A stretch of 64,000 nt of DNA from Candidatus Spyradenecus sp. (GCA_045634445.1 JAZRAG010000014.1:15272-79271); one strand, 5' to 3'; shown: positions 6,487 through 21,964, counted from the first letter of the stretch. The notes: generated by a model from the letters alone, not told the origin. Made by a program: numbers and translations.

Positions 6487-8291
6487 TTCGTTTTCTGCTC
6501 CTTTGGAAGTTTATCTGCGGGAATCCCTAAATAACGGCCAATGTCTTCTGCTACTGCAGCAAAGGTCGGTGCTGCCACGCCACCACCCGAACGCATCGAT
6601 CCGCGCGGCTTTTCAATCGTCACCAAAATGGCTAATTCTGGACGTGTGGCGGGGTAAACGCCGATGAATGAAACGTTATAGTCGCTGTGGTTATAATGTC
6701 CATTCACAGGAATCTGACCTGTGCCCGTTTTGCCTGCTACGGTGTAACTCGGCAGATTCGCGCGCCAGCCTGTGCCGCGAGGATTTAAAGCCGTTACAGA
6801 TTGTAGCATGTCCAACATCTTATCGCTCACTGTTTTTGAGAGCGGGCGCCCTAAAACATTCGGTGGATTGGCGCGCACCAATTCACCTTCGTGCGAGCGC
6901 ACTTCTTTGATGATGGTGGGCTGCATGAGATAACCGCCGTTGGCAATCGTGGAATAGGCGTTGACCAACTGAATTGCCGTCACGGAGATACTCTGGCCTA
7001 AGGGAATACGGGTAGGGGAGAGCTTATTCCACATGGCCTTTTTACGATAATCCCAGAAGATGCCATGTTCTTCACCGACGAGTTCAATGCCCGTCTTTCG
7101 GCCTAAGCCCATTGCATTAAAACTACGCCACAAAAGTTCGTTTTGTTCGGGCATTCCCTTTTTGGGGGCAGGTTGTGCCATGAGCAGACCAATCTGTGCA
7201 GTACCAATATTGGAGGACTGTCTCAAGATATCGCGAGCGGTAACCTTACCATACACCTTGTCGTGCAGCGGTTTCCCTGCATAGTACCACACCCCCGTGG
7301 TGCCCACATCAAAGACGGTGTGTTCGGTGATGATACCCATCTGCAAGGCCATCGCCACGGTAATTGACTTCATAACCGAGCCTGGCTCGTAGCAACGCGA
7401 AATAGCGATATTCTTCCACTCGTCTTGGAAGTGTTTGTTAAATTCTTGCGGTTTGAAACTCGGCAAGGTCGCCATGCCTAAGATTTCACCCGTTTTGACC
7501 TTTTGGACAATGATGGTGCCCGATTCTGCCTGGAAGTTAATCAACGCATTGGAGAGGGCATTTTCAATAATATACTGCACATTATTGTCAATGGTGAGGT
7601 AGATGTCATTGCCATGAATGGGCTCAACTTCATCAATGCGGCGCGAACGAATCTCTCGGCGACGGCCATCATAAACGGCATGCACCATGCCATTGGTGCC
7701 AGAGAGTTCCTTGTCAAAACGTTGCTCAATGCCATAGACGCCATCGCCATCGTGGTTCACAAACCCTAAAACGTGGCAGAGACGTGCACCATTGGGATAG
7801 GAGCGCACCGATTTAACGGTTGCGATGCTCACCCCTGCGATGCGATTGGTGGTATTAGAAGGGTCTTTACGACGCTGAAGCTCGTGAATGAGCGCGTCAT
7901 CGGTGATGGTGCAGATCTTGGTATAACGTCGTCCGCTGGCATAGGCTTCAATCAGTTTTTCCTGATTAATGCCTAAGAGCTCGGCCAATTCAATGGGCAT
8001 CGCATCGCGGTCAAGCTTCGGATTGGAGAGGGCCGGGTCTTGTGCGTCAATGGCGACCTCTCGCCCAGAAACGCTTTCGGCTAAAACAACGCCATTACGG
8101 TCAAGAATACGCCCGCGAAGACCGAGTAATTCGTAAGTGTTGTCATACTTTCGTTCGCGGTAATCTGGCGATTGCGGGATGAAAATATGCAGGTCAATGA
8201 GTTCCCACAAAACACGTAAAAAAACGACGATAACGCCCAGTAAAATGAGCGTCATCCATCGGTGTGCAATTTTATGCGGATTGTTGACCAT
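6483..8291 (-). CDS. ftsI: Peptidoglycan D,D-transpeptidase FtsI (class B PBP)
   Basis: N-terminal TM, dimerisation domain, and transpeptidase motifs SVMK (SxxK) and KTGT. Follows ftsL and rsmH. Confidence 0.85.
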   Translation of the reverse strand: MVNNPHKIAHRWMTLILLGVIVVFLRVLWELIDLHIFIPQSPDYRERKYDNTYELLGLRGRILDRNGVVLAESVSGREVAIDAQDPALSNPKLDRDAMPIELAELLGINQEKLIEAYASGRRYTKICTITDDALIHELQRRKDPSNTTNRIAGVSIATVKSVRSYPNGARLCHVLGFVNHDGDGVYGIEQRFDKELSGTNGMVHAVYDGRRREIRSRRIDEVEPIHGNDIYLTIDNNVQYIIENALSNALINFQAESGTIIVQKVKTGEILGMATLPSFKPQEFNKHFQDEWKNIAISRCYEPGSVMKSITVAMALQMGIITEHTVFDVGTTGVWYYAGKPLHDKVYGKVTARDILRQSSNIGTAQIGLLMAQPAPKKGMPEQNELLWRSFNAMGLGRKTGIELVGEEHGIFWDYRKKAMWNKLSPTRIPLGQSISVTAIQLVNAYSTIANGGYLMQPTIIKEVRSHEGELVRANPPNVLGRPLSKTVSDKMLDMLQSVTALNPRGTGWRANLPSYTVAGKTGTGQIPVNGHYNHSDYNVSFIGVYPATRPELAILVTIEKPRGSMRSGGGVAAPTFAAVAEDIGRYLGIPADKLPKEQKTK

Positions 8292-8322
8292 AGCCCTCCT
8301 GCAGCGACGAAATCGCGTTTAA

Positions 8323-8787
8323 TTAACGGCGGCGACGGCGGGACGTAGTGGTTTTTGTGCGCGAGGGGGTCTTTGTGGCGGCAACGCTGCTTTCCTTAGT
8401 GCGTTCTGCCTTTGCGATGCGTTCTTGTTGCAAGGACGCATGCAATGCTGCGGGGATTTCTAAGCGGCCATCGCGGCGAACGATGACACTGCGTTCCGGC
8501 GGGGCATAGGAGAGCTTCATGCCATTTTGACGAACGGCTTCATCAAGGCGCTGAGGCTCAATCAAGTGATTCCAGTCTGCAGTCTGACGACGCAAAGACG
8601 CTTCCAAAGAACGCTTTTCGTATTCGAGCTGCTTCACCTGAGTGCCCACTTGTTCAGCGCTCAAATCAACGAATACAGGATAGGCCCACGGCAGAATCAT
8701 CATTGCCCCGAGGACGATGCCGCCGAGGTGTGCTAATTTCAAATGATGTGTTTTCCGTTTCCGGTTCTGTTTTCTCATGGTGCTCAA
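8323..8787 (-). CDS. ftsL: Cell-division protein FtsL-like (membrane anchor plus coiled coil)
   Basis: Position between rsmH and ftsI. Single TM followed by a coiled-coil region. Low-complexity basic tail. Confidence 0.5.
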   Translation of the reverse strand: MSTMRKQNRKRKTHHLKLAHLGGIVLGAMMILPWAYPVFVDLSAEQVGTQVKQLEYEKRSLEASLRRQTADWNHLIEPQRLDEAVRQNGMKLSYAPPERSVIVRRDGRLEIPAALHASLQQERIAKAERTKESSVAATKTPSRTKTTTSRRRRR

Positions 8788-10479: not shown

Positions 10480-11215
10480 GAAGCGCCTAACAGCTCAAAA
10501 AACTAACCACCAAAATGCGCCCGAGCGCGAAGTGCTGGGCGTGAGCGAAGCGAACCTTCCACGGCTAAAACACACAAAACACACTAAAGGGACGTGGGGG
10601 CTGCGCGCCCCCACTCCCCGCGGCAGGGCTGAGCCCTGCACGGCATGTGTTTAGGAGTGCTCCGCAGGGAAGCCTTCGCACGGGACCTTCGCATTTTCCG
10701 CAAGAACGCTATCTCTTACTCCGCTTGCCCCTCGGCGCAAGAGAAATCCTGCTGCGCAGTCTTCCTCCCGAGGAGGCTACGCGGAGCGCTAAAGCCTTCG
10801 CTGGTTTTCCACGAGTCGCATAGGTCTTACAAGATGCTCGAAATGGGCACATCGTCCCGCTGCCCTTCGGGCCCGGGCGCATCGAGCTCATTTCTCGTCA
10901 TCTTGCGCTGACAAACCATAACATTTGGGAAAGAACTCCAATAATTTACGTAAGCGTTCCGTCGTCATACTCGGGAAGCGGAATGCAAAGCATAACGCTT
11001 CTTGCGCCGAGTTGAGCGACGGAACAAGATTTGCGTTCTTGCGTAAAATTCGTCGTGCTTTTCGCAGTCCTGCGGGCAAAGCCCGCCCAGCCCCGAAGGG
11101 GCGACAGACACATCACGAGATGCGTTGGCTTTTCGTGGGCGAAGCCCTCGTGTTACGAAAAGATCAACGTATCCTAGTGTCCTTAGTGTTAAACCCACTC
11201 GCTGTCCTGCTGCTA
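10480..11215 (+). repeat. Copy A (longest) of a modular intergenic repeat family: CA-rich tract, GC hairpin, conserved blocks
   Basis: Blocks cagaaCTAACCAC, cacaaaacacac, GTGGGGGCtgcgcGCCCCCAC, gtgctccgcagg, ttccacgagtcgca, gctcgaaatgggcacatc, catttctcgtcatcttgcgct and cagccccgaaggggcgacagacacatca-gagatgcgttgg recur in inverted orientation at 20337-20560, and partly at 13093-13190. Confidence 0.5.
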
Positions 11216-11270: not shown

Positions 11271-13067
11271 TTATTCGGTTTTAGCAGGCGCGGCCAAAAT
11301 TTCGCGGGCACGCGTTAAAGCATCCACGATGTGGCCATGGACATTGACCTGCCCAATGCGATCCAAGAAGCCCGAGCGTACCATCAGCATAAGGGGTTGC
11401 GCCGTGACGCCAGAGAGTACCAAGGTAATCCCACGCGCGCTGGCGTGTGCATACACCTCTTCAAGCGAGTGAAGGGCCGTTGCGTCCAAGACAAGCACAT
11501 GACGCATACGCAAGACCAAGACCCGCGGGCGGTTGCGACGATTCGAGAGCAAGGTGTCCTTAAACTTATCAGCGGCACCGAAGAAAAGGGCGCCATAGAC
11601 TTCGAAGACCTCAACATGCTCTGGCACCTCGATACCGGGTTGGCCCAAGTCATCTGCGCGCGGCGCTTCAGGAGCACCCGCGAGCAAACGGGTGATATTG
11701 CGCGCTTCAGTTGATTCGCTCATGCGTCGAATGAAGAGGAACGCCGCCAAAAGCACACCCGCCTGAATAGCCACGGTGAGGTCGATGAAGACGGTGAGTA
11801 AGAAGCTGGTCAACATCACGAGGATGTCTGAGCGCGTACTCTTAAAGATGCCCTTCACCAAGTGCAATTCACTCATGTTGTAAGCAACAATTGCCACCAC
11901 GCCACCCAGGGTTGCCATCGGGATCAACGCAGCATACCGCCCTAAGAACAACATAATAAATAAGAGGAAAACTGCGTGCAACATCCCTGCGACAGGTGTT
12001 TTACCACCGTTCTTGATGTTGGTCGCCGTGCGCGCGATTGCGCCCGTTGCTGGAATACCACCAAAGAGCGGAGAGAGGATATTGGCAATACCTTCACCGA
12101 TGAGTTCAGTATTTGAATTATGGCGACGCCCAATCATACCATCGGCCACCACAGCCGAGAGGAGCGACTCAATCCCCGCCAAAAGCGCGATTGAAATCGC
12201 CGGAGAAACCAATTCACGAATTGCGCTCCATTCAATCGCTGGGAATTGGGGCAAACTCAAGCTCATGCCCTCAGCCACAGCGGGGAACTTACTTCCGATA
12301 GTCTCCACATTGATGCCAAACGCCTCAAATGCCATTGCCAAAAGCGTGGTAATCACAATCGCCACAATCGACCCAGGCACCTTCTGCGTCACACGCTTCC
12401 AATAAATACAAATGAGAATGGTAATAAAGGAAATCGCCACCGCGCCCCAATTCACCGTTTCCAACGAATGCGCGTAAACATTGAGCTTCCCAACGAAGTC
12501 CCCTGGCATTTTCGCGTATTCCAGCGCCTTGAGCGCATCCGTGCAATTCAACCCAAGTAAGGCCTCAATCTGCCCCGCGAAGATGATTAAGGCAATGCCC
12601 GACGTAAAGCCTACCGTCACAGGGTAGGGAATGTATTTAATGATCGAGCCTAAACCACAAAAGCCGAGCACAATCAAAATCGCACCCGCCATCATGGTCG
12701 CAATCGCCAACCCCGACATGCCGAATTGCGCGTAAATGCCGTAGATAATGACGATAAACGCCCCCGTAGGACCGCCAATCTGCACGCGACACCCGCCCAA
12801 AGCCGAAATCGCAAACCCCGCAATCACCGCAGTGATCAAGCCTGCCTGCGGGGGGAGTCCTGCGGCGATAGAAAAAGCGATAGCCAAAGGTAAGGCTACC
12901 GCTGCCACAATCAAACCCGCCACGGCATCAGCCATGAAGGTCTTTAAATCATATCCTTCTTTGAAACATTGAACCATTTCAGGACGGAAGCGTTCCGAAA
13001 TGTTTTTGCCGATGCGTTTCCACTGGATTTTCATGTTGACCAATCCTTTTGTTTTAAAACGACTCAA
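11271..13067 (-). CDS. SulP-family anion transporter with C-terminal STAS domain
   Basis: SulP N-terminal motif (DAVAGLIVAAVALPLAIAFSIAAG), about 10 TM segments, and a STAS domain at the C-terminus. The start may instead be MKIQW at 13034. Confidence 0.8.
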   Translation of the reverse strand: MSRFKTKGLVNMKIQWKRIGKNISERFRPEMVQCFKEGYDLKTFMADAVAGLIVAAVALPLAIAFSIAAGLPPQAGLITAVIAGFAISALGGCRVQIGGPTGAFIVIIYGIYAQFGMSGLAIATMMAGAILIVLGFCGLGSIIKYIPYPVTVGFTSGIALIIFAGQIEALLGLNCTDALKALEYAKMPGDFVGKLNVYAHSLETVNWGAVAISFITILICIYWKRVTQKVPGSIVAIVITTLLAMAFEAFGINVETIGSKFPAVAEGMSLSLPQFPAIEWSAIRELVSPAISIALLAGIESLLSAVVADGMIGRRHNSNTELIGEGIANILSPLFGGIPATGAIARTATNIKNGGKTPVAGMLHAVFLLFIMLFLGRYAALIPMATLGGVVAIVAYNMSELHLVKGIFKSTRSDILVMLTSFLLTVFIDLTVAIQAGVLLAAFLFIRRMSESTEARNITRLLAGAPEAPRADDLGQPGIEVPEHVEVFEVYGALFFGAADKFKDTLLSNRRNRPRVLVLRMRHVLVLDATALHSLEEVYAHASARGITLVLSGVTAQPLMLMVRSGFLDRIGQVNVHGHIVDALTRAREILAAPAKTE

Positions 13068-13092
13068 GTTATTCTAACACAAATCCAACAGA

Positions 13093-13190
13093 AACTAAAG
13101 CGAAAAGGAAAGCCTAACATCACAGAAATTAACCACAAAACACACAAAACACACAAAAAATATGTGGGGGCTTCGCGCCCCCACCCCCGT
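13093..13190 (+). repeat. Copy B (5' fragment) of the repeat family: CA-tract plus GC hairpin
   Basis: cagaaactaa...aaccacaaaacacacaaaacacacaaaaaatatGTGGGGGCttcgcGCCCCCAC in the same orientation as copy A. Lies in the sulP promoter region, upstream of the tracrRNA. Confidence 0.5.
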
Positions 13191-13222
13191 TTCATCCCCC
13201 TCTATGTGAACGGCAAATAAAT

Positions 13223-13239
13223 GTCGCCTTTGAGGCGAC
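13223..13239 (-). terminator. Hairpin GTCGCC-tttga-GGCGAC, followed by a U-rich run on the minus strand (possible insulator between the tracrRNA and sulP)
   Basis: Perfect 6-bp stem. The minus strand continues AUUUAUUUG. Confidence 0.3.
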
Positions 13240-13364
13240 CTCTTAGACGCAAAAATATGAGATAGTAGGGGTGAAAGAAATGGAGAAAATAACGGATTTT
13301 TGAGTGTTATTTCGTTGACATCTTGAGTGGTTGTGTTAAAGTATAGATGTAAGGATGGGGGTAT

Positions 13365-13436
13365 AAAAAAGCCCTATACGGAGTACGTATAGGGAAGTCT
13401 TTCGACTGCGGCATATAGCCTTGTTGTGAAAAGACG
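13365..13436 (-). ncRNA. Predicted tracrRNA of the type II-C system (anti-repeat, nexus, terminator); the 5' end may extend to about 13460
   Basis: The minus strand reads (CUAGAAUUAAGCC)GUCUUUUCACAAC-AAGGCUAUAUGCCGCAG-UCGAAAGACUU-CCCUAUACG-uacuc-CGUAUAGGG-CUUUUUU. GUCUUUUCACAAC is a 13/13 complement of the repeat 5' end GUUGUGAAAAGAC. AAGGC..GCCGCA resembles the Neisseria Cas9 nexus. A 9-bp terminator stem is followed by U6. Confidence 0.6.
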
Positions 13437-13441
13437 GCTTA

Positions 13442-13471
13442 ATTCTAGCCCATCGAGGAAATGTTTGTCAA
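13442..13471 (-). promoter_or_regulatory. Candidate sigma70 promoter for the tracrRNA (-35 TTGACA, 18-nt spacer, -10 TAGAAT), divergent from cas9 and overlapping its 5' region
   Basis: Read on the minus strand. The predicted TSS falls at the start of the 13-nt perfect anti-repeat. Confidence 0.35.
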
Positions 13472-13486
13472 TAAGGAATTTTAATT

Positions 13487-16400
13487 ATGAAGCGTTTAGG
13501 GCTTGATTTGGGTACGTCCTCTTTGGGGTGGGCGATTATTGATGATGAGTTAATGAATACTGCGCCTACGGGGTCTGCTGCGCCGAATCCGATTGATTGT
13601 GGTGTTGTTATTTTCCCAGAGGGTATGAACCGTGATAAATCGGATAATTTATCTTCGCCGGCAGCAACGCGTCGTATGGCACGTGCTGCGCGCCGTTTAA
13701 TTTATCGTCGTAAGTTGCGTAAGTTTCACTTGCTTCGTGCGTTGATGGATGCTGGGATGTGTCCTTTGAGTGAAGCGGGGTTAAAAGCATGGAAGGATGA
13801 GGGTAAATACCCTGTGAATGATGAAGCATTTATGCTTTGGCTTCGGTCTACCAATGAAAGTAATCCCTACGCAGACCGCAATGCTGCAGCGACGGCGCCA
13901 GTGGATAAATTAGTTTTGGGACGCGCCCTTTATCATATGGCACAGCGTCGAGGATTTAAGAGTTCTAAAAAAGAGCAGTTTGAAGCTTTGAGCGCGGAAG
14001 ATGTTACTGAACAGAAAGCGAAGAAGGCTTCAGAGGCTACGCAGACAAAGCAGGCGATTGATACATTAACCGCAGAGCTTGAAAAAGAGCATTTGACACT
14101 TGGGCAGTATTTTTATCGCCTTTTCCAGCAGAATGTGAAAGAAATTAATGCGGCAGGTTCTGGCGAAGTAAAGACCGAGCGTGTTCGTGGTCGTAAGACG
14201 GGACGTATTGAACACTATCAAAAAGAATTTGAACGTATTGCTGAGGTTCAAGGCCTTTCAGATGAATTGCGTGAACGTTTTGCTTCAATTCTTTTCTTCC
14301 AGCGTCCGCTTCGTATTCAACGTCATACCGTTGGGTATTGTGCACTTGAGAAAGGTCAGAATGCGCGTAAGTATCGTCGTTGCTTAAAGAGTCATCCTGA
14401 TTTTGAATACTATCGTGCACTTTGTTTCTTGAACAATCTTCGCATTGGTGAAACGTTAGCTTCGGGGAAAGATCGTCTTCAGCGCAATGAAGGCCGACGT
14501 TTAACCGATGAAGAACGTCAAAAGGTGTTAGCCGCTCTTCAGCGTATGAGTTCGTGTACGATTGAAGACCTTTTGGGTAAAAAGAAGCCGTTACTTGACA
14601 AGAAGTACTACACGAATTATCGCCCGAAAGATGATGCGCCAGTGATGGAAATTCGCGCACGTCTGACGGATTTGGGCATTCCTGAAGATAAGTGGCAGAT
14701 GGCATTAAATGCGGCAGTTAACTTTGATGACTTAGAAAAATTACTTGCTTGGGCACAAAAGCCAACAACTTTGGGCCTTTCTGCAGCAGATGCTCGCACA
14801 TTTGTGAAGATTCGCTTCTCTACAGATCGTGCAGATTATAGTTTGCATGCTATTCGCAAGATTATCCCTTATTTAGAGCGTGGATATACCTTGCGTAAAG
14901 CGACTTTCTGTGCAAAATTGGGTGACATCATTCCGAATTATGCAGAAAAACAAGAGGCTGTCCTTCAAGGTTTGTTAGATTGTGAAGCGCGCTATGAAGC
15001 GGAAAAGGAACGTAAAAAGCAAAATCAACGCCTTAAGGTACATCCGCTTGAGGGATATCATTACAAGAATTATTTGGCTACGACTTGGGATGTTTCGGAA
15101 GAAGCATATAAACAATTGTATGTGGATATTACAGAGACGGATAAGTCTAATCCTGTGTTGCCTCCTGTGGATTTAGAGTCTATTCGTAATCCGCTCGCTT
15201 GCCGTTCGCTAACGGTTTTGCGTCGTCTCGTTAACACCCTTCGCGCAAATGGTAAAATTGATGGGGATACGAACATCTTTATTGAGTTGGCACATACGGT
15301 GAATAGTGCAAATCAGTGCCGTGCGATTGAGATGTATCAGTTAGAGCAAAAGAAGAAGCGCGAAGAGGCAGTCCTGAAACTTCAGGAAATTATTCAAGAG
15401 CACAATCTTAAGATTGCGATTAACGAAGACTCTATTTTGCGTTACATTCTTTGGCAAGAGCAGAATGGTTGTTGCGTTTATACCGGTCAATCGATTGGCT
15501 TAAAGGCAATGCTGACGGAGTGTGATATTGAACATACAATTCCGCGTTCGCGTGGCGGTACAAATGAACTTGATAACCTCACACTTTGCACCAGCCATTA
15601 CAATCGCAATGTGAAGAAAGGAAAAATCCCAACGGAGTGTCCGAATGCCTCCGAAGAGTGGTATGACCCTGAAACAAAGATGACTTATCCTGCACTTGAA
15701 TTAAGCACACCGATTAAGAATTGGAAAGATGAACTTCAAAAGCTTAGGAAAGAGTTGGACAAAAAGCCTAAGCGTGGGGGTGACATCTCGGCTTATAATG
15801 ACGCACGTAAGCGTTGGCTTGTGAAGCAGATGAAGTGTACCTATTTGAAAAAGAAACTTAAATCATTTGAACTCTCTGCCGAAACTGTAGGTGGCGATGG
15901 CTTCATGCCACGTCAAATGGTTGACACAGGCATTATTACCACACAGGCTGTGAAATTCTTAAAGAGCCGCTATGAATATGTCTTTACGCGTAATGGCGCG
16001 GTAACCGCAGCTGCGCGTAAGGCTTGGGGAATCCAACACGAAGATGAAAAGAAGTCTCGTATTGATCATGTCCATCACGCAGTAGATGCATGTGTGATTG
16101 CGGCATTGGATACGAAAGCTTTCACGGATATTTGTTCTCAATTGGGTAAAGACGAAACCTTTACGCGTTGGAATACCGTTGTTTGTGAGCCTTATCCAGA
16201 CTTTGCACAACGCGTGAATGATGCAACCGAAAGCATTTTGGTACGCCACCTTCCTACGAATCGCCAGACCAAACCGATTGATAAGCGCCGTCAACGTATC
16301 CCGTTGTCGGTTGTGAAACGCCTTAAACAAGCACAATTATCCTCTGCAAAGGCAAAAAAGACATCGACCATCCGCGGTAGTCTCCATAATGATACGATTT

Positions 16401-17173
16401 ATGGAAAGATAAAGCTGAATGGTGAAGAAGTTGTCGTGCTCCGTAAGACAATTACAGCAGCAGGTACAGACTTTAAGAAGTGGGTGACACAAGGCAATGT
16501 CGTTGACAAAGGCGTTTGCGATGCACTACGAGCGCAAATCGCTGCTTATGAAGCGCAAGGCATTGCAGAAAAGGATTTGCCTAACCAAGTCTATAAAATG
16601 CCATCGGGTATTCCCATTAAGAAAATCCGTATTAAGGTGGCAAAACCCAAAAATCCTGATGCGATTCGTCAACAAGTCTTTGTACCCAAAGCGCCTGTTT
16701 ATGGCTCAGGAAGCGACATCCTTGGATTTAATGTCTGTAAAGATGCGAAGGGTAAACTTGTCGCAGAGCAGATCTCTTTGCTTGATGAGGCAAAGTCTTT
16801 CGGAGAAGGGATGTCTTCTGTGGACAAGTGTTTCAGCATCTATCCCATGCAACTTGCTTTCGCATATGAAAAGACTCCAGAAGAATTAAAGGCGCTTTCT
16901 TCCCGAGAATTGATGAAACGATTGTATGTCGTACGTCAAGTGGAAGAAGGTCAAGTCACATTTTACTATCACCGAGAAGCGAGAAGAGCGAAATTGCTTG
17001 CTGAAGAGTTAGAGAAAAACGGAAAGTCAAAAAAAGGTGAGTCTAAATTAAACTTCATTATCCCAGAGCGGAAACTACGAGTTGCAAGAGGTGTATTCTT
17101 AGACCACATGCTTTATGAAGGGGTTCACTTTACACTTTCAATGGATGGTGAGGTAGAATGGCTCAATGATTAA
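13487..17173 (+). CDS. cas9: Cas9 (type II-C), 1228 aa
   Basis: RuvC-I MKRLGLDLGTSSLGWAII. Arg-rich bridge helix (RRMARAARRLIYRRKLRK). HNH (DIEHTIPRSRGGTNELDNLTLCTSHYNRNV). RuvC-III (HHAVDACVIAAL). RBS aagga 9 nt upstream. Confidence 0.95.
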   Translation: MKRLGLDLGTSSLGWAIIDDELMNTAPTGSAAPNPIDCGVVIFPEGMNRDKSDNLSSPAATRRMARAARRLIYRRKLRKFHLLRALMDAGMCPLSEAGLKAWKDEGKYPVNDEAFMLWLRSTNESNPYADRNAAATAPVDKLVLGRALYHMAQRRGFKSSKKEQFEALSAEDVTEQKAKKASEATQTKQAIDTLTAELEKEHLTLGQYFYRLFQQNVKEINAAGSGEVKTERVRGRKTGRIEHYQKEFERIAEVQGLSDELRERFASILFFQRPLRIQRHTVGYCALEKGQNARKYRRCLKSHPDFEYYRALCFLNNLRIGETLASGKDRLQRNEGRRLTDEERQKVLAALQRMSSCTIEDLLGKKKPLLDKKYYTNYRPKDDAPVMEIRARLTDLGIPEDKWQMALNAAVNFDDLEKLLAWAQKPTTLGLSAADARTFVKIRFSTDRADYSLHAIRKIIPYLERGYTLRKATFCAKLGDIIPNYAEKQEAVLQGLLDCEARYEAEKERKKQNQRLKVHPLEGYHYKNYLATTWDVSEEAYKQLYVDITETDKSNPVLPPVDLESIRNPLACRSLTVLRRLVNTLRANGKIDGDTNIFIELAHTVNSANQCRAIEMYQLEQKKKREEAVLKLQEIIQEHNLKIAINEDSILRYILWQEQNGCCVYTGQSIGLKAMLTECDIEHTIPRSRGGTNELDNLTLCTSHYNRNVKKGKIPTECPNASEEWYDPETKMTYPALELSTPIKNWKDELQKLRKELDKKPKRGGDISAYNDARKRWLVKQMKCTYLKKKLKSFELSAETVGGDGFMPRQMVDTGIITTQAVKFLKSRYEYVFTRNGAVTAAARKAWGIQHEDEKKSRIDHVHHAVDACVIAALDTKAFTDICSQLGKDETFTRWNTVVCEPYPDFAQRVNDATESILVRHLPTNRQTKPIDKRRQRIPLSVVKRLKQAQLSSAKAKKTSTIRGSLHNDTIYGKIKLNGEEVVVLRKTITAAGTDFKKWVTQGNVVDKGVCDALRAQIAAYEAQGIAEKDLPNQVYKMPSGIPIKKIRIKVAKPKNPDAIRQQVFVPKAPVYGSGSDILGFNVCKDAKGKLVAEQISLLDEAKSFGEGMSSVDKCFSIYPMQLAFAYEKTPEELKALSSRELMKRLYVVRQVEEGQVTFYYHREARRAKLLAEELEKNGKSKKGESKLNFIIPERKLRVARGVFLDHMLYEGVHFTLSMDGEVEWLND

Positions 17174-18071
17174 ACGGACGCTTTGCTTCTCAACTCCAGG
17201 AAAACTCCGTCTTCACTTGCGCCAACTTCTTTGGTGTGGTGAAGATGGAAGAGAAGCAAGTGTGCCCATCGAAGATCTTGGGATTGTCATCTTAGAGTCC
17301 CCCTTAATCACTGTCAGTATGGCGCTATTACAAGCGCTAACAGAGGCATGTGTCGCGGTTGTCCTCTGTGATGCGTCCCATCTCCCTTCAGGCTATCTCC
17401 TTCCACAAGTATCACATACCCTTGCGAGTCGCTTTTTGAGAAATCAAATTGAACTTACAGATGCTCAATCGAGGCGCTTGTGGCAACAAATTGTTATCCG
17501 TAAAATCCAAAATCAAGCGTCTGTAATTCGGACATTAAATCCGCAAAAGGCGAACGAATTATGTGAGATGGCAGAGTTTGTTAAACGAGGAGATGTCACA
17601 AATATTGAAGCGCAAGCTGCGAAACTCTATTTTACGGCTTTTCCAATTTCAGAAGATGTCTTTCATCGTTCGCGTTATGGTACCATGCCTAATGCGGCAT
17701 TAAACTATGGATATGCGATTTTAAGAGCCGCAGTCGCACGATGTTTAGTAGCCTCAGGATTGAACACCACCTTAGGAATCCATCATCGTAATCAATATAA
17801 CCACTTTTGCCTTGCAGATGATGTGATGGAGCCCTATCGTCCCTTTGTAGATGCAATCGTCTTAGAGCATTTAGAGGCGTTCGAGAAAGCAGAAGAACCT
17901 ACGCAAGTCTCCACAAAAGGAAAGCAAATCCTCTTGCCGTTCTTGACAATGGATGTGCGAATAGGAGAATCAACGCGACCTCTTTTTAACGCCCTTCAAT
18001 TAACCACAGCATCTCTCGCACGATGTATCTGTAATGAACAAAAAACGCTCGAATTACCATCATTCCCATGA
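17166..18071 (+). CDS. cas1: Cas1 integrase
   Basis: Overlaps cas9 by 8 nt. Cas1-like conserved acidic and His residues. Position between cas9 and cas2. Confidence 0.9.
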   Translation: MIKRTLCFSTPGKLRLHLRQLLWCGEDGREASVPIEDLGIVILESPLITVSMALLQALTEACVAVVLCDASHLPSGYLLPQVSHTLASRFLRNQIELTDAQSRRLWQQIVIRKIQNQASVIRTLNPQKANELCEMAEFVKRGDVTNIEAQAAKLYFTAFPISEDVFHRSRYGTMPNAALNYGYAILRAAVARCLVASGLNTTLGIHHRNQYNHFCLADDVMEPYRPFVDAIVLEHLEAFEKAEEPTQVSTKGKQILLPFLTMDVRIGESTRPLFNALQLTTASLARCICNEQKTLELPSFP

Positions 18072-18415
18072 GTGAAGTTGAGTTTACAGCGATTAACCAT
18101 TACAAAGCAATGTGGCTTTACGCACTCTTTGATCTCCCAACAGAAACTAAACGGCAACGAAAAGCCGCTGCACAGTTTCGTAAAGGCCTCTTGCAAGATG
18201 GCTTTACAATGCTTCAATTTTCTGTGTATATTCGCCATTGTGCATCAAGAGAAAATGCAGAAGTTCACATTAAGCGCGTGAGAATGATAACACCAGAAGA
18301 GGGGCGTGTTGCGATTCTTGCGGTAACGGATAGACAATTCGATCAAATGGTCATTCTTTACGGGAAAAAAGAAAAACCTGCGCCACCTGCGCCAGTTCAA
18401 CTAGAACTTTTTTAA
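18068..18415 (+). CDS. cas2: Cas2
   Basis: 115 aa. Overlaps cas1 by 4 nt. Immediately precedes the array. Confidence 0.85.
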   Translation: MSEVEFTAINHYKAMWLYALFDLPTETKRQRKAAAQFRKGLLQDGFTMLQFSVYIRHCASRENAEVHIKRVRMITPEEGRVAILAVTDRQFDQMVILYGKKEKPAPPAPVQLELF

Positions 18416-18463
18416 ACAAAAAAAGAAACCGATTGACTCTTTTTTGAAGAAATCAATCGGTTT
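18416..18463 (-). terminator. Strong minus-strand intrinsic terminator between cas2 and the array; it would stop antisense pre-crRNA read-through
   Basis: Minus strand reads GAAACCGAUUGA-(16-nt loop)-UCAAUCGGUUUC followed by UUUUUUUGUUU. On the plus strand the same hairpin has no U-tract. Confidence 0.6.
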
Positions 18464-18477
18464 CTAAGTCTTCGGTA

Positions 18478-18498
18478 TGCTCCTTAAGATGTTATACA
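18478..18498. repeat. Inverted partial copy (18/21) of the CRISPR repeat, 21 bp from the first repeat: a hairpin partner, anti-repeat-like element
   Basis: ctccttaagatgttatacaat versus cttcttaagatttgatacaat (the reverse complement of the repeat's first 21 nt), with a 19-nt gap to the repeat at 18520. Confidence 0.5.
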
Positions 18499-18519
18499 AT
18501 AAAGACTTATGCATTCAAT

Positions 18520-20336
18520 ATTGTATCAAATCTTAAGAAGATGTCTTTTCACAACTCTCAAGCGGATTGACGTTACATCTCCAAAATTGTATCAAATCTT
18601 AAGAAGATGTCTTTTCACAACTGTACTTTACTAACATTAAGTGTCAGATTGATTGTATCAAATCTTAAGAAGATGTCTTTTCACAACTCTATATTGTTTA
18701 GTTTTGCAATCTCTTTGATTGTATCAAATCTTAAGAAGATGTCTTTTCACAACTGGCGGCCATTGAGACCTTCCGTCGTCAGAATTGTATCAAATCTTAA
18801 GAAGATGTCTTTTCACAACAACCTTCTTCAAGAATAGATTTAGAAACTTATTGTATCAAATCTTAAGAAGATGTCTTTTCACAACTGAAGAAGCGTATTC
18901 TTATGTTTGTTCTCAATTGTATCAAATCTTAAGAAGATGTCTTTTCACAACTCCTTTAGTCTATTCAACTGTTCAACGAGAATTGTATCAAATCTTAAGA
19001 AGATGTCTTTTCACAACACTTTGAACATTATCAATGTTTCGCAGACTATTGTATCAAATCTTAAGAAGATGTCTTTTCACAACTTCCGTTTAGCTGCGCT
19101 TTTCCTCTCTTCCATTGTATCAAATCTTAAGAAGATGTCTTTTCACAACACGAAAACCCAGAAGCAATCTTTTAAAGAATTGTATCAAATCTTAAGAAGA
19201 TGTCTTTTCACAACTCCGAACGGGAAAAAATGGTTTCAATCGTAATTGTATCAAATCTTAAGAAGATGTCTTTTCACAACCGTTATTTCAGCACTTTCTC
19301 GCGGTTTTGAATTGTATCAAATCTTAAGAAGATGTCTTTTCACAACTTTTAGTTCACAAACAGGAACATTAAAAGGATTGTATCAAATCTTAAGAAGATG
19401 TCTTTTCACAACCTATCTGCCTTTCCCTGGGTCTAGTTATGAATTGTATCAAATCTTAAGAAGATGTCTTTTCACAACTATAACTGGTATGCTGCTTGGT
19501 GCGGTGTCATTGTATCAAATCTTAAGAAGATGTCTTTTCACAACCTAAAACCCAGAAGCAATCTTTTAAAGAGAATTGTATCAAATCTTAAGAAGATGTC
19601 TTTTCACAACTGCAGTATCGCGTGCCGATGCTGGAGGCGGATTGTATCAAATCTTAAGAAGATGTCTTTTCACAACACCGCCCGAAGCAGTAATCGAAGC
19701 TAGTGCATTGTATCAAATCTTAAGAAGATGTCTTTTCACAACTGCGCTTGTAGCCATTGGTGGGATCAGCCAATTGTATCAAATCTTAAGAAGATGTCTT
19801 TTCACAACCACCGGCTCAAGATTGCGCGTGCTTTAGGGATTGTATCAAATCTTAAGAAGATGTCTTTTCACAACCTCCGGTGGCCCCATCTACCGCCTCG
19901 CCATATTGTATCAAATCTTAAGAAGATGTCTTTTCACAACATACCGACGTTGATTTCAATCAGTGTCCGGATTGTATCAAATCTTAAGAAGATGTCTTTT
20001 CACAACAATTGATGAATGTTGATATTTCAGATATTAATTGTATCAAATCTTAAGAAGATGTCTTTTCACAACAATCAGTTGGTATACAGGTTCTGGAATC
20101 GCATTGTATCAAATCTTAAGAAGATGTCTTTTCACAACAAAATATACTCGCAATACACAAAAGACCCTATTGTATCAAATCTTAAGAAGATGTCTTTTCA
20201 CAACTATCATGGCGACAATTAAAACAACAATAGCATTGTATCAAATCTTAAGAAGATGTCTTTTCACAACTACTGACGCGTTTAATTATATTTGTTCACA
20301 ATTGTATCAAATCTTAAGAAGATGTCTTTTCACAAC
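18520..20336 (-). CRISPR. CRISPR array: 28 copies of a 36-bp repeat (GTTGTGAAAAGACATCTTCTTAAGATTTGATACAAT in the inferred crRNA sense) and 27 spacers of 29-30 bp
   Basis: Exact 66-bp periodicity. All repeats are identical. The orientation call (minus strand) rests on the GTTGT...ACAAT termini, an extended -10 TGATACAAT at the repeat 3' end, the anti-repeat of the upstream tracrRNA, and the minus-strand terminator at 18416-18463. Confidence 0.95.
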
Positions 20337-20560
20337 CAACGCATCTCTTGATGTGTCTGTCGCCCCTTTGGGGCTGGAAAAGCGCGAGCGCAAGATGACG
20401 AGAAATGGAGATGTGCCCATTTCGAGCAGCGTGCAAGATTCGTGCGACTCGTGGAAATCCCTCGTCGTCCTGCGGAGCACCTTTTTGTGTGTTTTGTGTT
20501 TTTTGTGGTTAGTTTCTGTGCCGTCAGGCACTCGTATCCTGTGGTTTATTTCCTCACGTG
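20337..20560 (-). repeat. Copy C of the repeat family (inverted relative to A and B), abutting the terminal CRISPR repeat
   Basis: The reverse complement aligns block-for-block with copy A (cagaaactaaccac...cacaaaacacac, gtgctccgcagg, ttccacgagtcgca, gctcgaaatgggcacatc, catttctcgtcatcttgcgct, cagcccc-aaggggcgacagacacatcaagagatgcgttgg). The gcgttgg end lies 0 bp from the repeat. Confidence 0.5.
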
Positions 20561-20600
20561 CTGCGCGTGGCGCTTGTTTGGGGGTGTTGGGTGCTGCCAT

Positions 20601-20629
20601 TTGCGTCTTTGAAAAAGATATGCTATAAT
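20601..20629 (+). promoter_or_regulatory. purA promoter (-35 TTGCGT, 17-nt spacer, extended -10 TGcTATAAT)
   Basis: Sequence motif about 60 nt upstream of the purA ATG. RBS aaggaag at 20675. Confidence 0.45.
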
Positions 20630-20686
20630 TGGTCACCGTTTTGCGTCATTGTAGACGCGTCAATCCTCCAACGTAAGGAAGTAGCT

Positions 20687-21964
20687 ATGCCAAATACCAT
20701 TTTGATTGGTTCGCAATGGGGCGATGAGGGCAAGGGTAAGATTATTGACGTTTTGACCGCACAGGCCGATATGATTGTGCGTTATCAGGGCGGTTCTAAT
20801 GCTGGTCACACGGTGATTGCTGAGGGTGAAAAGCGCGTGTTGCGTTTGGTGCCGTCGGGTATCTTGCATGATGGCAAGGTGTGTGTGATTGGTAATGGTG
20901 TGGTGATGAATCCGTTGGACTTGATTGATGAAATCGAGATGCTCCGCAGCACGGGTATTGAGTGCAAGGGGCGCCTTTTCATCTCCACGCGTACGCAGAT
21001 GGTGATGTTGTATCACCGCGCTTTGGATAAGGCTGATGAAGCTGCACGTCCGGTGGGTAAGAAGATTGGTACGACGGGTCGTGGCATTGGTCCGGCTTAT
21101 GCGGCTAAGGTTTCTCGTACGGGTTTGCGCTGCGGTGATATGTTGATCCCCGAATTCCCTGAATTGGTGCGCGAACAGGTGTTGGAAACGAATGTGAAGT
21201 TGGCCCAGCTCAATGCGGATCCTTTGGATGCTGATGAGATGGTGAAGACTTACATTGAAGCTGCTGAAAAGCTTCGTCCGTACATCATCGACACGATTCC
21301 TTTGATTCATAAGGCCGATCGTGCAGGTCAGTCGATTCTTTTGGAAGGTGCTCAGGGCACGATGTTGGACATCGACTTTGGTACGTATCCCTTCGTGACG
21401 AGCTCGAACCCCACTTCTGGCGGTGCTTGCATTGGTTCGGGTTTGAGCCCGCGCCGCATTGACCGTGTGGTGGGCGTGATTAAGGCTTACACGACGCGTG
21501 TGGGCGAAGGTCCGTTCCCGACGGAAGATTTCGGTGAAGTGGGTAAGACGCTCGCTGAACGCGGCCATGAATTTGGTGCAGTGACGGGCCGTCCGCGCCG
21601 TTGCGGTTGGTTTGACGCTGTGGTGGCACGTTATGCTCAGATGGTCAATGGCGTTGACTTCTGGACGATGACGAAGCTTGACGTGATGGATACGCTTCCT
21701 GAAATCAAGATTTGCGTGGCGTATGAACTCGATGGTAAGCGCATTGAGGATATGCCTGCATCTGCTGCTGAATTGGCACGTTGCAAGCCGATTTACGAAA
21801 CGATGCCGGGGTGGTTGGAAGAAACTTCCAATGTGACCTCGATGGATCAGCTTCCGCTCAAGGCGAAGGCTTATGTGGATCGTTTGATTGAACTCTCTGG
21901 TGGCCGTTTGGGCATTCTCTCTGTGGGCCCGGCGCGTGAATCGACCATTCGCGTGGGCATCTAA
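20687..21964 (+). CDS. purA: Adenylosuccinate synthetase
   Basis: MPNTILIGSQWGDEGKGK P-loop and GTTGRGIGP motifs. The ORF-track start at 20558 is a spurious upstream extension. Confidence 0.9.
   Translation: MPNTILIGSQWGDEGKGKIIDVLTAQADMIVRYQGGSNAGHTVIAEGEKRVLRLVPSGILHDGKVCVIGNGVVMNPLDLIDEIEMLRSTGIECKGRLFISTRTQMVMLYHRALDKADEAARPVGKKIGTTGRGIGPAYAAKVSRTGLRCGDMLIPEFPELVREQVLETNVKLAQLNADPLDADEMVKTYIEAAEKLRPYIIDTIPLIHKADRAGQSILLEGAQGTMLDIDFGTYPFVTSSNPTSGGACIGSGLSPRRIDRVVGVIKAYTTRVGEGPFPTEDFGEVGKTLAERGHEFGAVTGRPRRCGWFDAVVARYAQMVNGVDFWTMTKLDVMDTLPEIKICVAYELDGKRIEDMPASAAELARCKPIYETMPGWLEETSNVTSMDQLPLKAKAYVDRLIELSGGRLGILSVGPARESTIRVGI

Follow-up and report, generated by a model that had tools for sequence, protein, structure and literature searches.

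The window analysed here, a stretch of 64,000 nucleotides from Candidatus Spyradenecus sp. (GCA_045634445.1 JAZRAG010000014.1:15272-79271), carries a CRISPR-Cas module flanked by a SulP/DauA-like transporter gene and purA, with its features in the order predicted tracrRNA gene, cas9, cas1, cas2 and array (Table 1). G+C content is 36-44% across the module vs about 50% in the flanks. The ORF map and NCBIfam matches give cas9, cas1 and cas2 only, without csn2 or cas4, i.e. the gene content of a type II-C system. When the Cas9 was compared with solved Cas9 structures, Nme Cas9 structures included, only its HNH region matched.

Adjoining cas9, outside the array and on the opposite strand, is an element (13365-13435) that is very probably the tracrRNA gene of this type II-C CRISPR-Cas9 locus, whose host is an uncultured gut bacterium. 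The assignment is made because of its conservation, the covariation of its structure, the co-variation of anti-repeat and repeat, and the existence of homologous published sgRNAs. A position upstream of cas9 is one of four that are typical of tracrRNA genes (Chylinski 2013, PMC3737331), and the 51 nt given by the preliminary description as the distance to the cas9 start codon is exact (ATG at 13487, tracrRNA base 13435). The 5′ and 3′ ends of the RNA are predicted from the promoter, the terminator and conservation; the RNA would be expressed, loaded into the 1228-aa Cas9 and processed without RNase III.

Table 1. Coordinates of the CRISPR-Cas features, numbered from the first base of the window
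Feature	Position	Strand	Description
Candidate cas9 promoter	13315-13342	+	TTGACA-16-TGtTAAAGT; tentative, from a consensus scan
Predicted tracrRNA gene	13365-13435	-	~71 nt, from putative start G13435 to end of U tract
Terminator hairpin	13372-13394	-	CCCTATACG/CGTATAGGG, 9 bp; then C, then U6 at 13365-13370
Hairpin 1	13396-13407	-	AGUC-GAAA-GACU; 4 pairs, 3 of them changing on both sides among relatives; GAAA cap
Nexus	13409-13422	-	AAGGCUAUAUGCCG (AAGGCTATATGCCG); stem GGC/GCC, loop UAUAU
Anti-repeat	13423-13435	-	GUCUUUUCACAAC (also written GTCTTTTCACAAC); perfect complement of repeat bases 1-13 (GUUGUGAAAAGAC)
-10 hexamer, tracrRNA promoter	13442-13447	-	TAGAAT; consensus scan; 6 nt upstream of G13435
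-35 hexamer, tracrRNA promoter	13466-13471	-	TTGACA; consensus scan
cas9	13487-17173	+	1228 aa; TIGR01865, E 3e-113
cas1	17166-18071	+	Nme-type, cas1_NMENI TIGR03639, E 3e-79
cas2	18068-18415	+	TIGR01573
Strong hairpin and T7	18417-18465	-	Read as terminator for array transcripts before cas2
Leader-like junction	18482-18519		ATACAATAAAGACTTATGCATTCAAT; includes inverted partial repeat copy at 18482-18500
CRISPR array	18520-20336	-	28 repeats of 36 nt, 27 spacers (26 of 30 nt, one of 29)

Elements of the predicted tracrRNA gene and their conservation

Read on the minus strand, the element begins with an anti-repeat that complements the spacer-proximal (5′) part of the repeat, continues directly into a nexus and ends in 3′ hairpins, the last of which forms a Rho-independent terminator. 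Re-reading of the sequence placed every element of the preliminary description at the minus-strand coordinates it had given. The promoter it had proposed, TTGACA-N18-TAGAAT, was returned by an independent consensus scan with a score of 11/12 (13471-13442), as were, by an independent scan, the 9-bp hairpin and U6 tract that it had taken for a terminator (13394-13372 plus the T run). Its perfect anti-repeat likewise held, all 13 pairs being Watson-Crick and the site being the only one outside the array: with one mismatch allowed the 13-mer has 29 matches in the window, 28 of them the array repeats, while shuffles give 0.13 matches on average. The tail from nexus to terminator folds into the three expected hairpins at -20.8 kcal/mol (z = -4.06), and none of 200 shuffles was as stable. 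When the whole tracrRNA is folded alone, GUCUUUU pairs with GAAAGAC, a pairing that is not kept in the related loci L085 or L023.

Cas9 homologues of 89% down to about 30% identity were used to fetch 79 loci from genomes, 80 from metagenomes and, for closer relatives, 13 contigs (individual loci are given L numbers); these relatives are metagenome-assembled sequences. By Cas9, the nearest named ones are Kiritimatiellae and Lentisphaerae gut MAGs and the more distant ones are Bacteroidales (Alistipes, Rikenellaceae, Prevotella), and the metagenome scan added just one close relative, L088 (89%). Six close relatives and a structure specified by hand went into a covariance model, R1. It has exactly one match in 74 of the 80 sources, always on the strand opposite to cas9 and just upstream of it, and agrees with a motif search on the tracrRNA copies. 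Built from the clade of the window, R1 matches Bacteroidales loci at E 1e-5 to 1e-10, and the matches in Rikenellaceae, Alistipes and Prevotella loci fall at the same place upstream of cas9. The preliminary description had suggested a search with covariance models: R1 gave a single match in the window (13362-13435, 92.6 bits, E 2e-18), whereas a permissive Rfam scan of 12500-21000 returned no tracrRNA family even at E up to 10. The missing Rfam match is unsurprising, since there is little conservation of tracrRNA sequence from one type II group to another (PMC3737331).

Standard pairs fill 97.5% of pair cells in the R1 alignment, compared with 39-46% when partners are slid, figures to be read with the knowledge that the alignment is model-fitted and hence leans towards the structure. 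Thirteen of its 17 pairs vary on both sides, and the covariation score was reached in 0/500 shuffles. The nexus stem GGC/GCC is invariant in 72 distinct sequences; hairpin 1 occurs with the stems AGUC/GACU, AGGU/ACCU, AGGA/UCCU, AGGG/CCCU and AGUA/UACU, and the terminator has compensatory changes in all 10 modelled pairs. Even between the window and L088 there is a compensatory change, from CCCUAUACG/CGUAUAGGG in the window to CCUCAUACG/CGUAUGAGG. Covariation therefore supports the predicted hairpin 1 and terminator. Hairpin 1 was missed by RNAalifold on a raw MAFFT alignment, owing to misalignment, and that alignment was replaced by the hand-specified structure and covariance model.

The same alignment bears on a different explanation, according to which the element would be a cis-acting structure of the plus strand in the cas9 5′ UTR, or a decayed solitary repeat without RNA function. 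It does sit where the cas9 leader must run, and Rfam gives no tracrRNA match. About 90 G:U cells are compatible with a minus-strand RNA only, however, as many G:U and U:G pairs of the hairpins would be A:C mismatches on the plus strand, and the T run and conserved promoter are found on the minus strand only. In addition, the anti-repeat co-varies with the repeats, which neither a relic nor a UTR has reason to do, and homologous RNAs work as sgRNAs. A UTR structure or repeat relic is thus very unlikely.

Repeat pairing and the predicted start of transcription

The repeat, present in 28 copies, reads GTTGTGAAAAGACATCTTCTTAAGATTTGATACAAT on the minus strand. In every locus, repeat base 1 is paired with the tracrRNA base that immediately precedes the nexus, and the crRNA orientation is therefore GUUG...ACAAU, which corresponds to the minus strand here. 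The array is inverted relative to cas9 in L003, L004, L007 and those Bacteroidales loci with a detected array; yet in these loci too the tracrRNA lies upstream of cas9 and is complementary to the GUUG orientation. The anti-repeat also tracks the repeat of its own locus, as in L002 (GUCUUUUUACAGC with GCUGUAAAAAGAC) and L171 (AUCAAUUCACAAC with GUUGUGAAUUGAU), and in L168 a G:U pair is found where the repeat has GGC. Over 38 distinct pairs in a pseudo-sgRNA alignment, the covariation of repeat and anti-repeat is 0.331 vs 0.163 shuffled (0/500).

Essentially all 38 family members have positions 1-8 and 11-13 paired, while positions 9-10, paired in the window, are unpaired in 27 of the 38. The Bacteroidales duplex consists of 8 bp, a 2x2 UU/UU loop and a further 9-11 bp, and a sister Kiritimatiellae group has 8 bp, the same 2x2 UU/UU loop and then 4-7 bp. 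In contrast, the clade of the window has 13 continuous pairs without internal loop or upper stem: among close relatives positions 1-13 are paired in 12/12 (positions 9-10 in 10/12), positions 14-16 in just 3-4/12 and later positions at compositional background.

Co-folding of the RNA with the crRNA repeat had been put forward as a check by the preliminary description. Run with a 24-nt spacer plus repeat and the 71-nt RNA, it yielded precisely the 13-bp duplex together with nexus, hairpin 1 and terminator. The duplex is worth -18.9 kcal/mol, far weaker than the median hybrid energy of -39.4 kcal/mol reported for II-C systems (PMC6546382), a comparison between values obtained by different methods. 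In vivo, the hybrid may depend on Cas9 or on additional structure for its stability. About 12 bp of duplex reportedly suffice in the standard engineered S. pyogenes sgRNA, as attributed to Jinek in 2012; since the duplex of the window is comparable, its 13 bp should be enough for Cas9 loading.

The preliminary description left two options for the transcription start, one at the first base of the 13-mer (RNA of about 72 nt) and one further upstream. Of the 13 close relatives read, 12 have the -35 box TTGAC[AG], the exception being L171 with TTGCCG; the box is followed by a spacer of 17-18 variable bases and, in 11 of the 13, by a -10 box (TAnAAT, CATACT or TATATT) that ends 6-7 nt before the first anti-repeat base. 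The gap is 7 nt in L002, L005 and L087 and 6 nt in the others of the 11; L170 has a weak -10 box with a longer gap, and L086 is left out of the count. That first base is usually a purine preceded by a pyrimidine. The bases between the -10 box and the anti-repeat vary freely, the promoter being the only part conserved upstream of the anti-repeat. Owing to this fixed gap and to complementarity that falls to background from position 14, the short option is favoured, with a tracrRNA of ~71-72 nt predicted to start at the first base of the 13-mer.

The second option, a longer tracrRNA whose ~26-nt bulged anti-repeat would pair imperfectly with repeat bases 1-26, draws on UUAAG at 13441-13437, which can pair with CUUAA of the repeat, and on a slight shift in duplex energy, from -18.9 to -20.2 kcal/mol (a gain of 1.3), when 41 extra upstream bases are included. 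Those upstream bases are nevertheless the -10 box and discriminator, and the upstream complement is not conserved in sequence among relatives, where positions 14-16 are paired in only 3-4/12 and later ones at background. Furthermore, L001 and L081 have other repeat middles without a matching upstream complement, and a consensus scan returned no second upstream promoter before the cas9 start. The longer form is accordingly considered unlikely.

The array, its leader-like junction and the candidate cas9 promoter

An extended -10 box, TGATACAAT, closes each repeat, and the crRNA reading strand, with orientation taken from the anti-repeat geometry, is the minus strand. In N. meningitidis promoters are embedded in the repeats, crRNAs start at the 6th spacer base and RNase III is dispensable (PMC5965381, PMC12477760). 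By analogy, repeat-internal promoters directed towards cas2 probably give rise to the crRNAs of the window. Weak Rfam matches to BTnc231, Yfr11 and mir-14, all below threshold, rest on the hairpin between cas2 and the array. A BLAST search with the complete array returned only chance matches among phage genomes, viral contigs scanned for exact copies of spacer cores yielded no match and hence no protospacer or PAM support for the orientation, and the spacers are without matches in the window or the fetched loci.

The junction between this hairpin and the array is itself conserved. Its motif is kept beside the ATTGT array end in the window, L081, L084, L001 and L023, and is found on the other side in the loci with an inverted array (L003, L004, L007); a conserved stretch, ATACAATAAAGAnTTAT...TTCAAT, adjoins the ATTGT end and moves with the inverted array. 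Degenerate terminal repeats occur at the opposite array end. The junction at 18482-18519 thus behaves as an acquisition leader at the transcription-downstream end of the array, and in N. meningitidis the leader adjoins the last repeat, R26 (PMC12477760).

The inverted partial repeat copy within the junction (18482-18500) could be proposed as the working anti-repeat, the element upstream of cas9 being something else. Its minus-strand sequence AUUGUAUAACAUCUUAAGG can pair with the last 18 repeat bases with 2 mismatches, and the strong terminator at 18417-18465 comes after it. However, its complementarity is to the wrong end of the repeat, the 3′ part rather than the spacer-proximal 5′ part required by Cas9 guide geometry; the copy has neither nexus nor scaffold hairpins and no R1 match, and was rejected as a tracrRNA. 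What is conserved there is just ATACAAT and the adjoining leader motif, whatever the repeat middles, and because this conservation ignores the repeat middles the copy is read as part of a leader or integration-site motif. That it supplies the working anti-repeat is improbable in the extreme.

At the other end of the module the distance from the tracrRNA -35 box to the cas9 ATG is only 15 nt, ribosome-binding site included, so that the promoter of cas9 has to share sequence with the tracrRNA gene or be situated on its far side. The best candidate (13315-13342) lies beyond the tracrRNA terminator, i.e. upstream of the tracrRNA 3′ end in the sense of the plus strand. The element recurs in L080 and L081, and TATAAT-type boxes are found at a similar place in L002, L003, L006 and L007, although by itself the promoter scan does not exceed chance (3 sites vs 1.7 expected). 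Were this promoter used, the cas9 5′ UTR would run antisense over the full length of the tracrRNA, with the two promoters facing each other. From this arrangement, transcriptional interference between tracrRNA and cas9, raised in the preliminary description, is plausible, and any regulation would come from collision or from antisense pairing rather than from the binding of Cas9.

Proposed mechanism and relation to known systems

In the proposed mechanism, transcription of the tracrRNA from a sigma-70-type promoter would begin at G13435, give or take a base or two, and end near 13365 at the intrinsic terminator. The resulting RNA, about 71 nt long, would pair bulge-free through its first 13 bases with repeat bases 1-13. 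The crRNAs would start from the extended -10 box at the repeat ends, as in Neisseria meningitidis, and their transcripts would stop at the minus-strand terminator 18417-18465. The Cas9-binding scaffold would be formed by the nexus, the small GAAA hairpin and the terminator hairpin.

Repeat bases 14-26 of the window can form a small hairpin, AUCUU-CUU-AAGAU, directly after the segment that pairs with the tracrRNA. Corresponding stems are UCCC/GGGA in L001, CCUU/AAGG in L084, L086, L168 and L169, and UCUUU/AAAGA in L003; the hairpin is absent or displaced in L023, L170 and L171. The cofold places the hairpin on top of the 13-bp duplex, stacked to give 18 bp (13 + 5) plus loop, close to the 19 bp plus loop of the engineered Rsp sgRNA. 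Among relatives, neither its pairing (78.5% vs 77.0% in shuffles, 175/500 as high) nor its covariation (0.336 vs 0.291 shuffled) is significant. It is possible, if rather doubtful, that the upper stem has moved from the tracrRNA into this repeat hairpin, that RNase III is not needed and that the cas9 leader couples the levels of Cas9 and tracrRNA. The dual RNA would then resemble a nicked sgRNA, with the nick at the tracrRNA 5′ end, and RNase III would be unnecessary because the duplex is so short and the promoters lie inside the repeats. Should the upper stem really have been replaced by the repeat hairpin, the guide structure would be split between two RNAs in an unusual way; if not, the result is a sound but ordinary annotation.

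The data fill in the guide RNA of an uncharacterised Cas9 branch, type II-C proteins of large size (~1200 aa) from Kiritimatiellia-like bacteria of the gut, a label taken from the nearest relatives, and a literature search found no paper pairing a tracrRNA with these bacteria. An sgRNA can be designed directly from repeat bases 1-13, a loop and then 13435-13365. Loci with weakly pairing anti-repeats, plus 12 further problem loci, have been described (Chylinski 2013, PMC3737331). Natural anti-repeats here appear to be as short as 13 nt, counted from the predicted first transcribed base, and genes of this kind may be overlooked more easily by anti-repeat screens that favour long stretches of complementarity.

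In S. pyogenes (type II-A), a long form of the tracrRNA is said to repress the cas9 promoter, as reportedly described by Workman et al. in 2021. There, as in the window, the tracrRNA lies upstream of cas9 on the opposite strand and cross-talk with cas9 is possible; unlike in S. pyogenes, no long form or promoter-targeting segment is evident in the window.

With N. meningitidis, the window shares the cas9-cas1-cas2-array layout, 36-nt repeats and 30-nt spacers. Both repeats start with GUUGU and end in an extended -10 box (TGCTACAAT in Nme, TGATACAAT in the window), and in both systems crRNAs are read towards the cas genes and a leader-like sequence lies transcription-downstream (PMC12477760, PMC5965381). 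The N. meningitidis tracrRNA sequence given in the preliminary description was correct, matching the Nme2 entry ...GCUACAAUAAGGCCGUCUGAAAAGAUGUGCCGCAACG... (Gasiunas 2020, PMC7606464, supplementary file 4), and its "Neisseria-like nexus" stands as a resemblance (AAGGC...GCCGCA) but not as family membership, the Nme tracrRNA having a long anti-repeat, a 27-nt nexus stem-loop and other terminal hairpins.

The true family is instead the Bacteroidales/Kiritimatiellia scaffold AAGGCUAUAUGCCGNAG, which is already known and functional: working sgRNAs with this scaffold were used in PAM screens with Ghe and Rsp Cas9 (Gasiunas 2020, PMC7606464, supplementary file 4), and Jpa Cas9 has a similar one (PMC7606464). 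The RNA of Ghe Cas9 (clade IX) contains ...ACAUCUUAUCACAAUAAGGCUAUAUGCCGAAGG..., and that of Rsp Cas9 (Rikenellaceae sp., clade VIII, 1213 aa) ...ACAUCUUACCACAAUAAGGCCAUGGGCCGCAGG...GUCUCCGCGUACUCCGUGGAGAC... (PMC7606464). The 14-nt nexus of the Ghe tracrRNA and sgRNA is identical to that of the window (AAGGCUAUAUGCCGAAGG), Rsp has the terminator loop CGUACUCCG in common with it, and in both the modules follow the order of the window with a nearly identical core, ...CACAA(U/C)-AAGGCUAUAUGCCG(A/C)AG-small hairpin-terminator hairpin-U run. The window RNA accordingly has the core ...CACAA(C/U)-AAGGCUAUAUGCCGNAG, the 4-bp hairpin and the terminator hairpin, but not the 8-bp lower stem, 2x2 internal loop and 9-11 bp upper stem. 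Hairpin 1 is AGUC/GACU in the window and AGGN/NCCU in Rsp and Ghe, and the window Cas9 is only about 31-33% identical to its Bacteroidales relatives. Where Rsp and Ghe RNAs pair with the repeat over about 19-21 positions, the window RNA pairs over 13, continuously and without loop or upper stem, and is for this reason a variant of the family. Thus the scaffold family is known from experimentally used, published sgRNAs, and what appears to be new is the clade and its architecture, a 13-nt anti-repeat without bulge or upper stem that would begin at the transcription start itself.

Folding of the tracrRNA and of the repeat

The fold favoured by the tracrRNA on its own (13365-13435, minus strand; -24.7 kcal/mol) joins GUCUUUU, the 5' half of its anti-repeat, to GAAAGAC in hairpin 1. 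This self-pairing would hide the anti-repeat until it is displaced by the crRNA; the pairing is absent from L085 and L023, two of the metagenome-assembled cas9 loci of relatives (L numbers) compared with the window. In L023 and L170, UU in the repeat faces UU in the anti-repeat at positions 9-10, so that the 2x2 internal loop known from the wider Bacteroidales/Kiritimatiellia scaffold family is recreated, and in L171 full pairing is regained through a change in both partners, i.e. AAUU with AAUU. Directly after the segment that pairs with the tracrRNA, every repeat of the array contains a small palindrome (see table), which close relatives build from different sequences; among the close relatives compared, covariation in the palindrome is without statistical support.

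Features in and around the CRISPR-Cas module (window positions)
Feature	Position	Strand	Details
Third, partial copy of flanking repeat	10567-10614		87.5% over 48 nt
Inverted repeat arms, 48 nt	13112-13159 and 20482-20529		90% complementary
Two additional terminator-like GC hairpins with T runs	13164-13184 and 13223-13239	minus	
Leader-like motif	18482-18519		[G]ATACAATAAAGAnTTAT...TTCAAT; adjoins ATTGT end of array; conserved
Palindrome, repeat bases 14-26	every repeat of array 18520-20336	minus	AUCUU-CUU-AAGAU
Spacer 10	19150-19178		
Spacer 16	19545-19574		

Boundaries of the module

The entire tracrRNA-cas9-cas1-cas2-array module is enclosed by the inverted repeat, the arms of which lie 7.3 kb apart. 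The G+C content of the module is lower than that of its flanks, and its gene neighbourhoods differ among the relatives. The third, partial copy of the repeat spans the CA-rich tract and a GC hairpin. The inverted repeat could be the mark of a mobile or invertible cassette, or it could be just a dispersed intergenic repeat. Downstream of the tracrRNA terminator, and ahead of the transporter gene start at 13067, are the two additional terminator-like hairpins, which may shield the transporter gene from read-through or may form part of the flanking repeat element.

In the relative L084, cas1 (7848-8748) is called as two ORFs of 178 and 127 amino acids, with cas9 and the tracrRNA intact alongside; the adaptation module of this locus is possibly frameshifted or decaying.

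Array orientation and spacer acquisition

Spacers 10 and 16 have a 26-nt core in common, TCTTTAAAAGATTGCTTCTGGGTTTT, with a 2-nt offset and differing 3' ends, and their sequences suggest that spacers were acquired more than once from variants of a single target. No exact match to the core was found in the viral contig collection searched.

The orientation of the array relative to cas9 varies, with L003, L004, L007 and the Bacteroidales relatives on one side and the window, L001, L002, L081 and others on the other, such that in some relatives GTTG reads on the same strand as cas9, in others on the complementary one. The leader-like motif, part of which copies the end of the repeat in inverted orientation, also lies next to the ATTGT end in L081, L084, L001 and L023, and is found on the far side of the array in L003, L004 and L007. 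Position and strand of the tracrRNA are constant across both array orientations while the leader motif travels with the array, a pattern that implies inversion of whole arrays during the evolution of these relatives. New spacers would be inserted at the array end that crRNA transcription reaches last, since the leader-like motif is located there and the degenerate terminal repeats are at the opposite end. Spacer entry at the transcription-downstream end of the array would resemble the arrangement in N. meningitidis.
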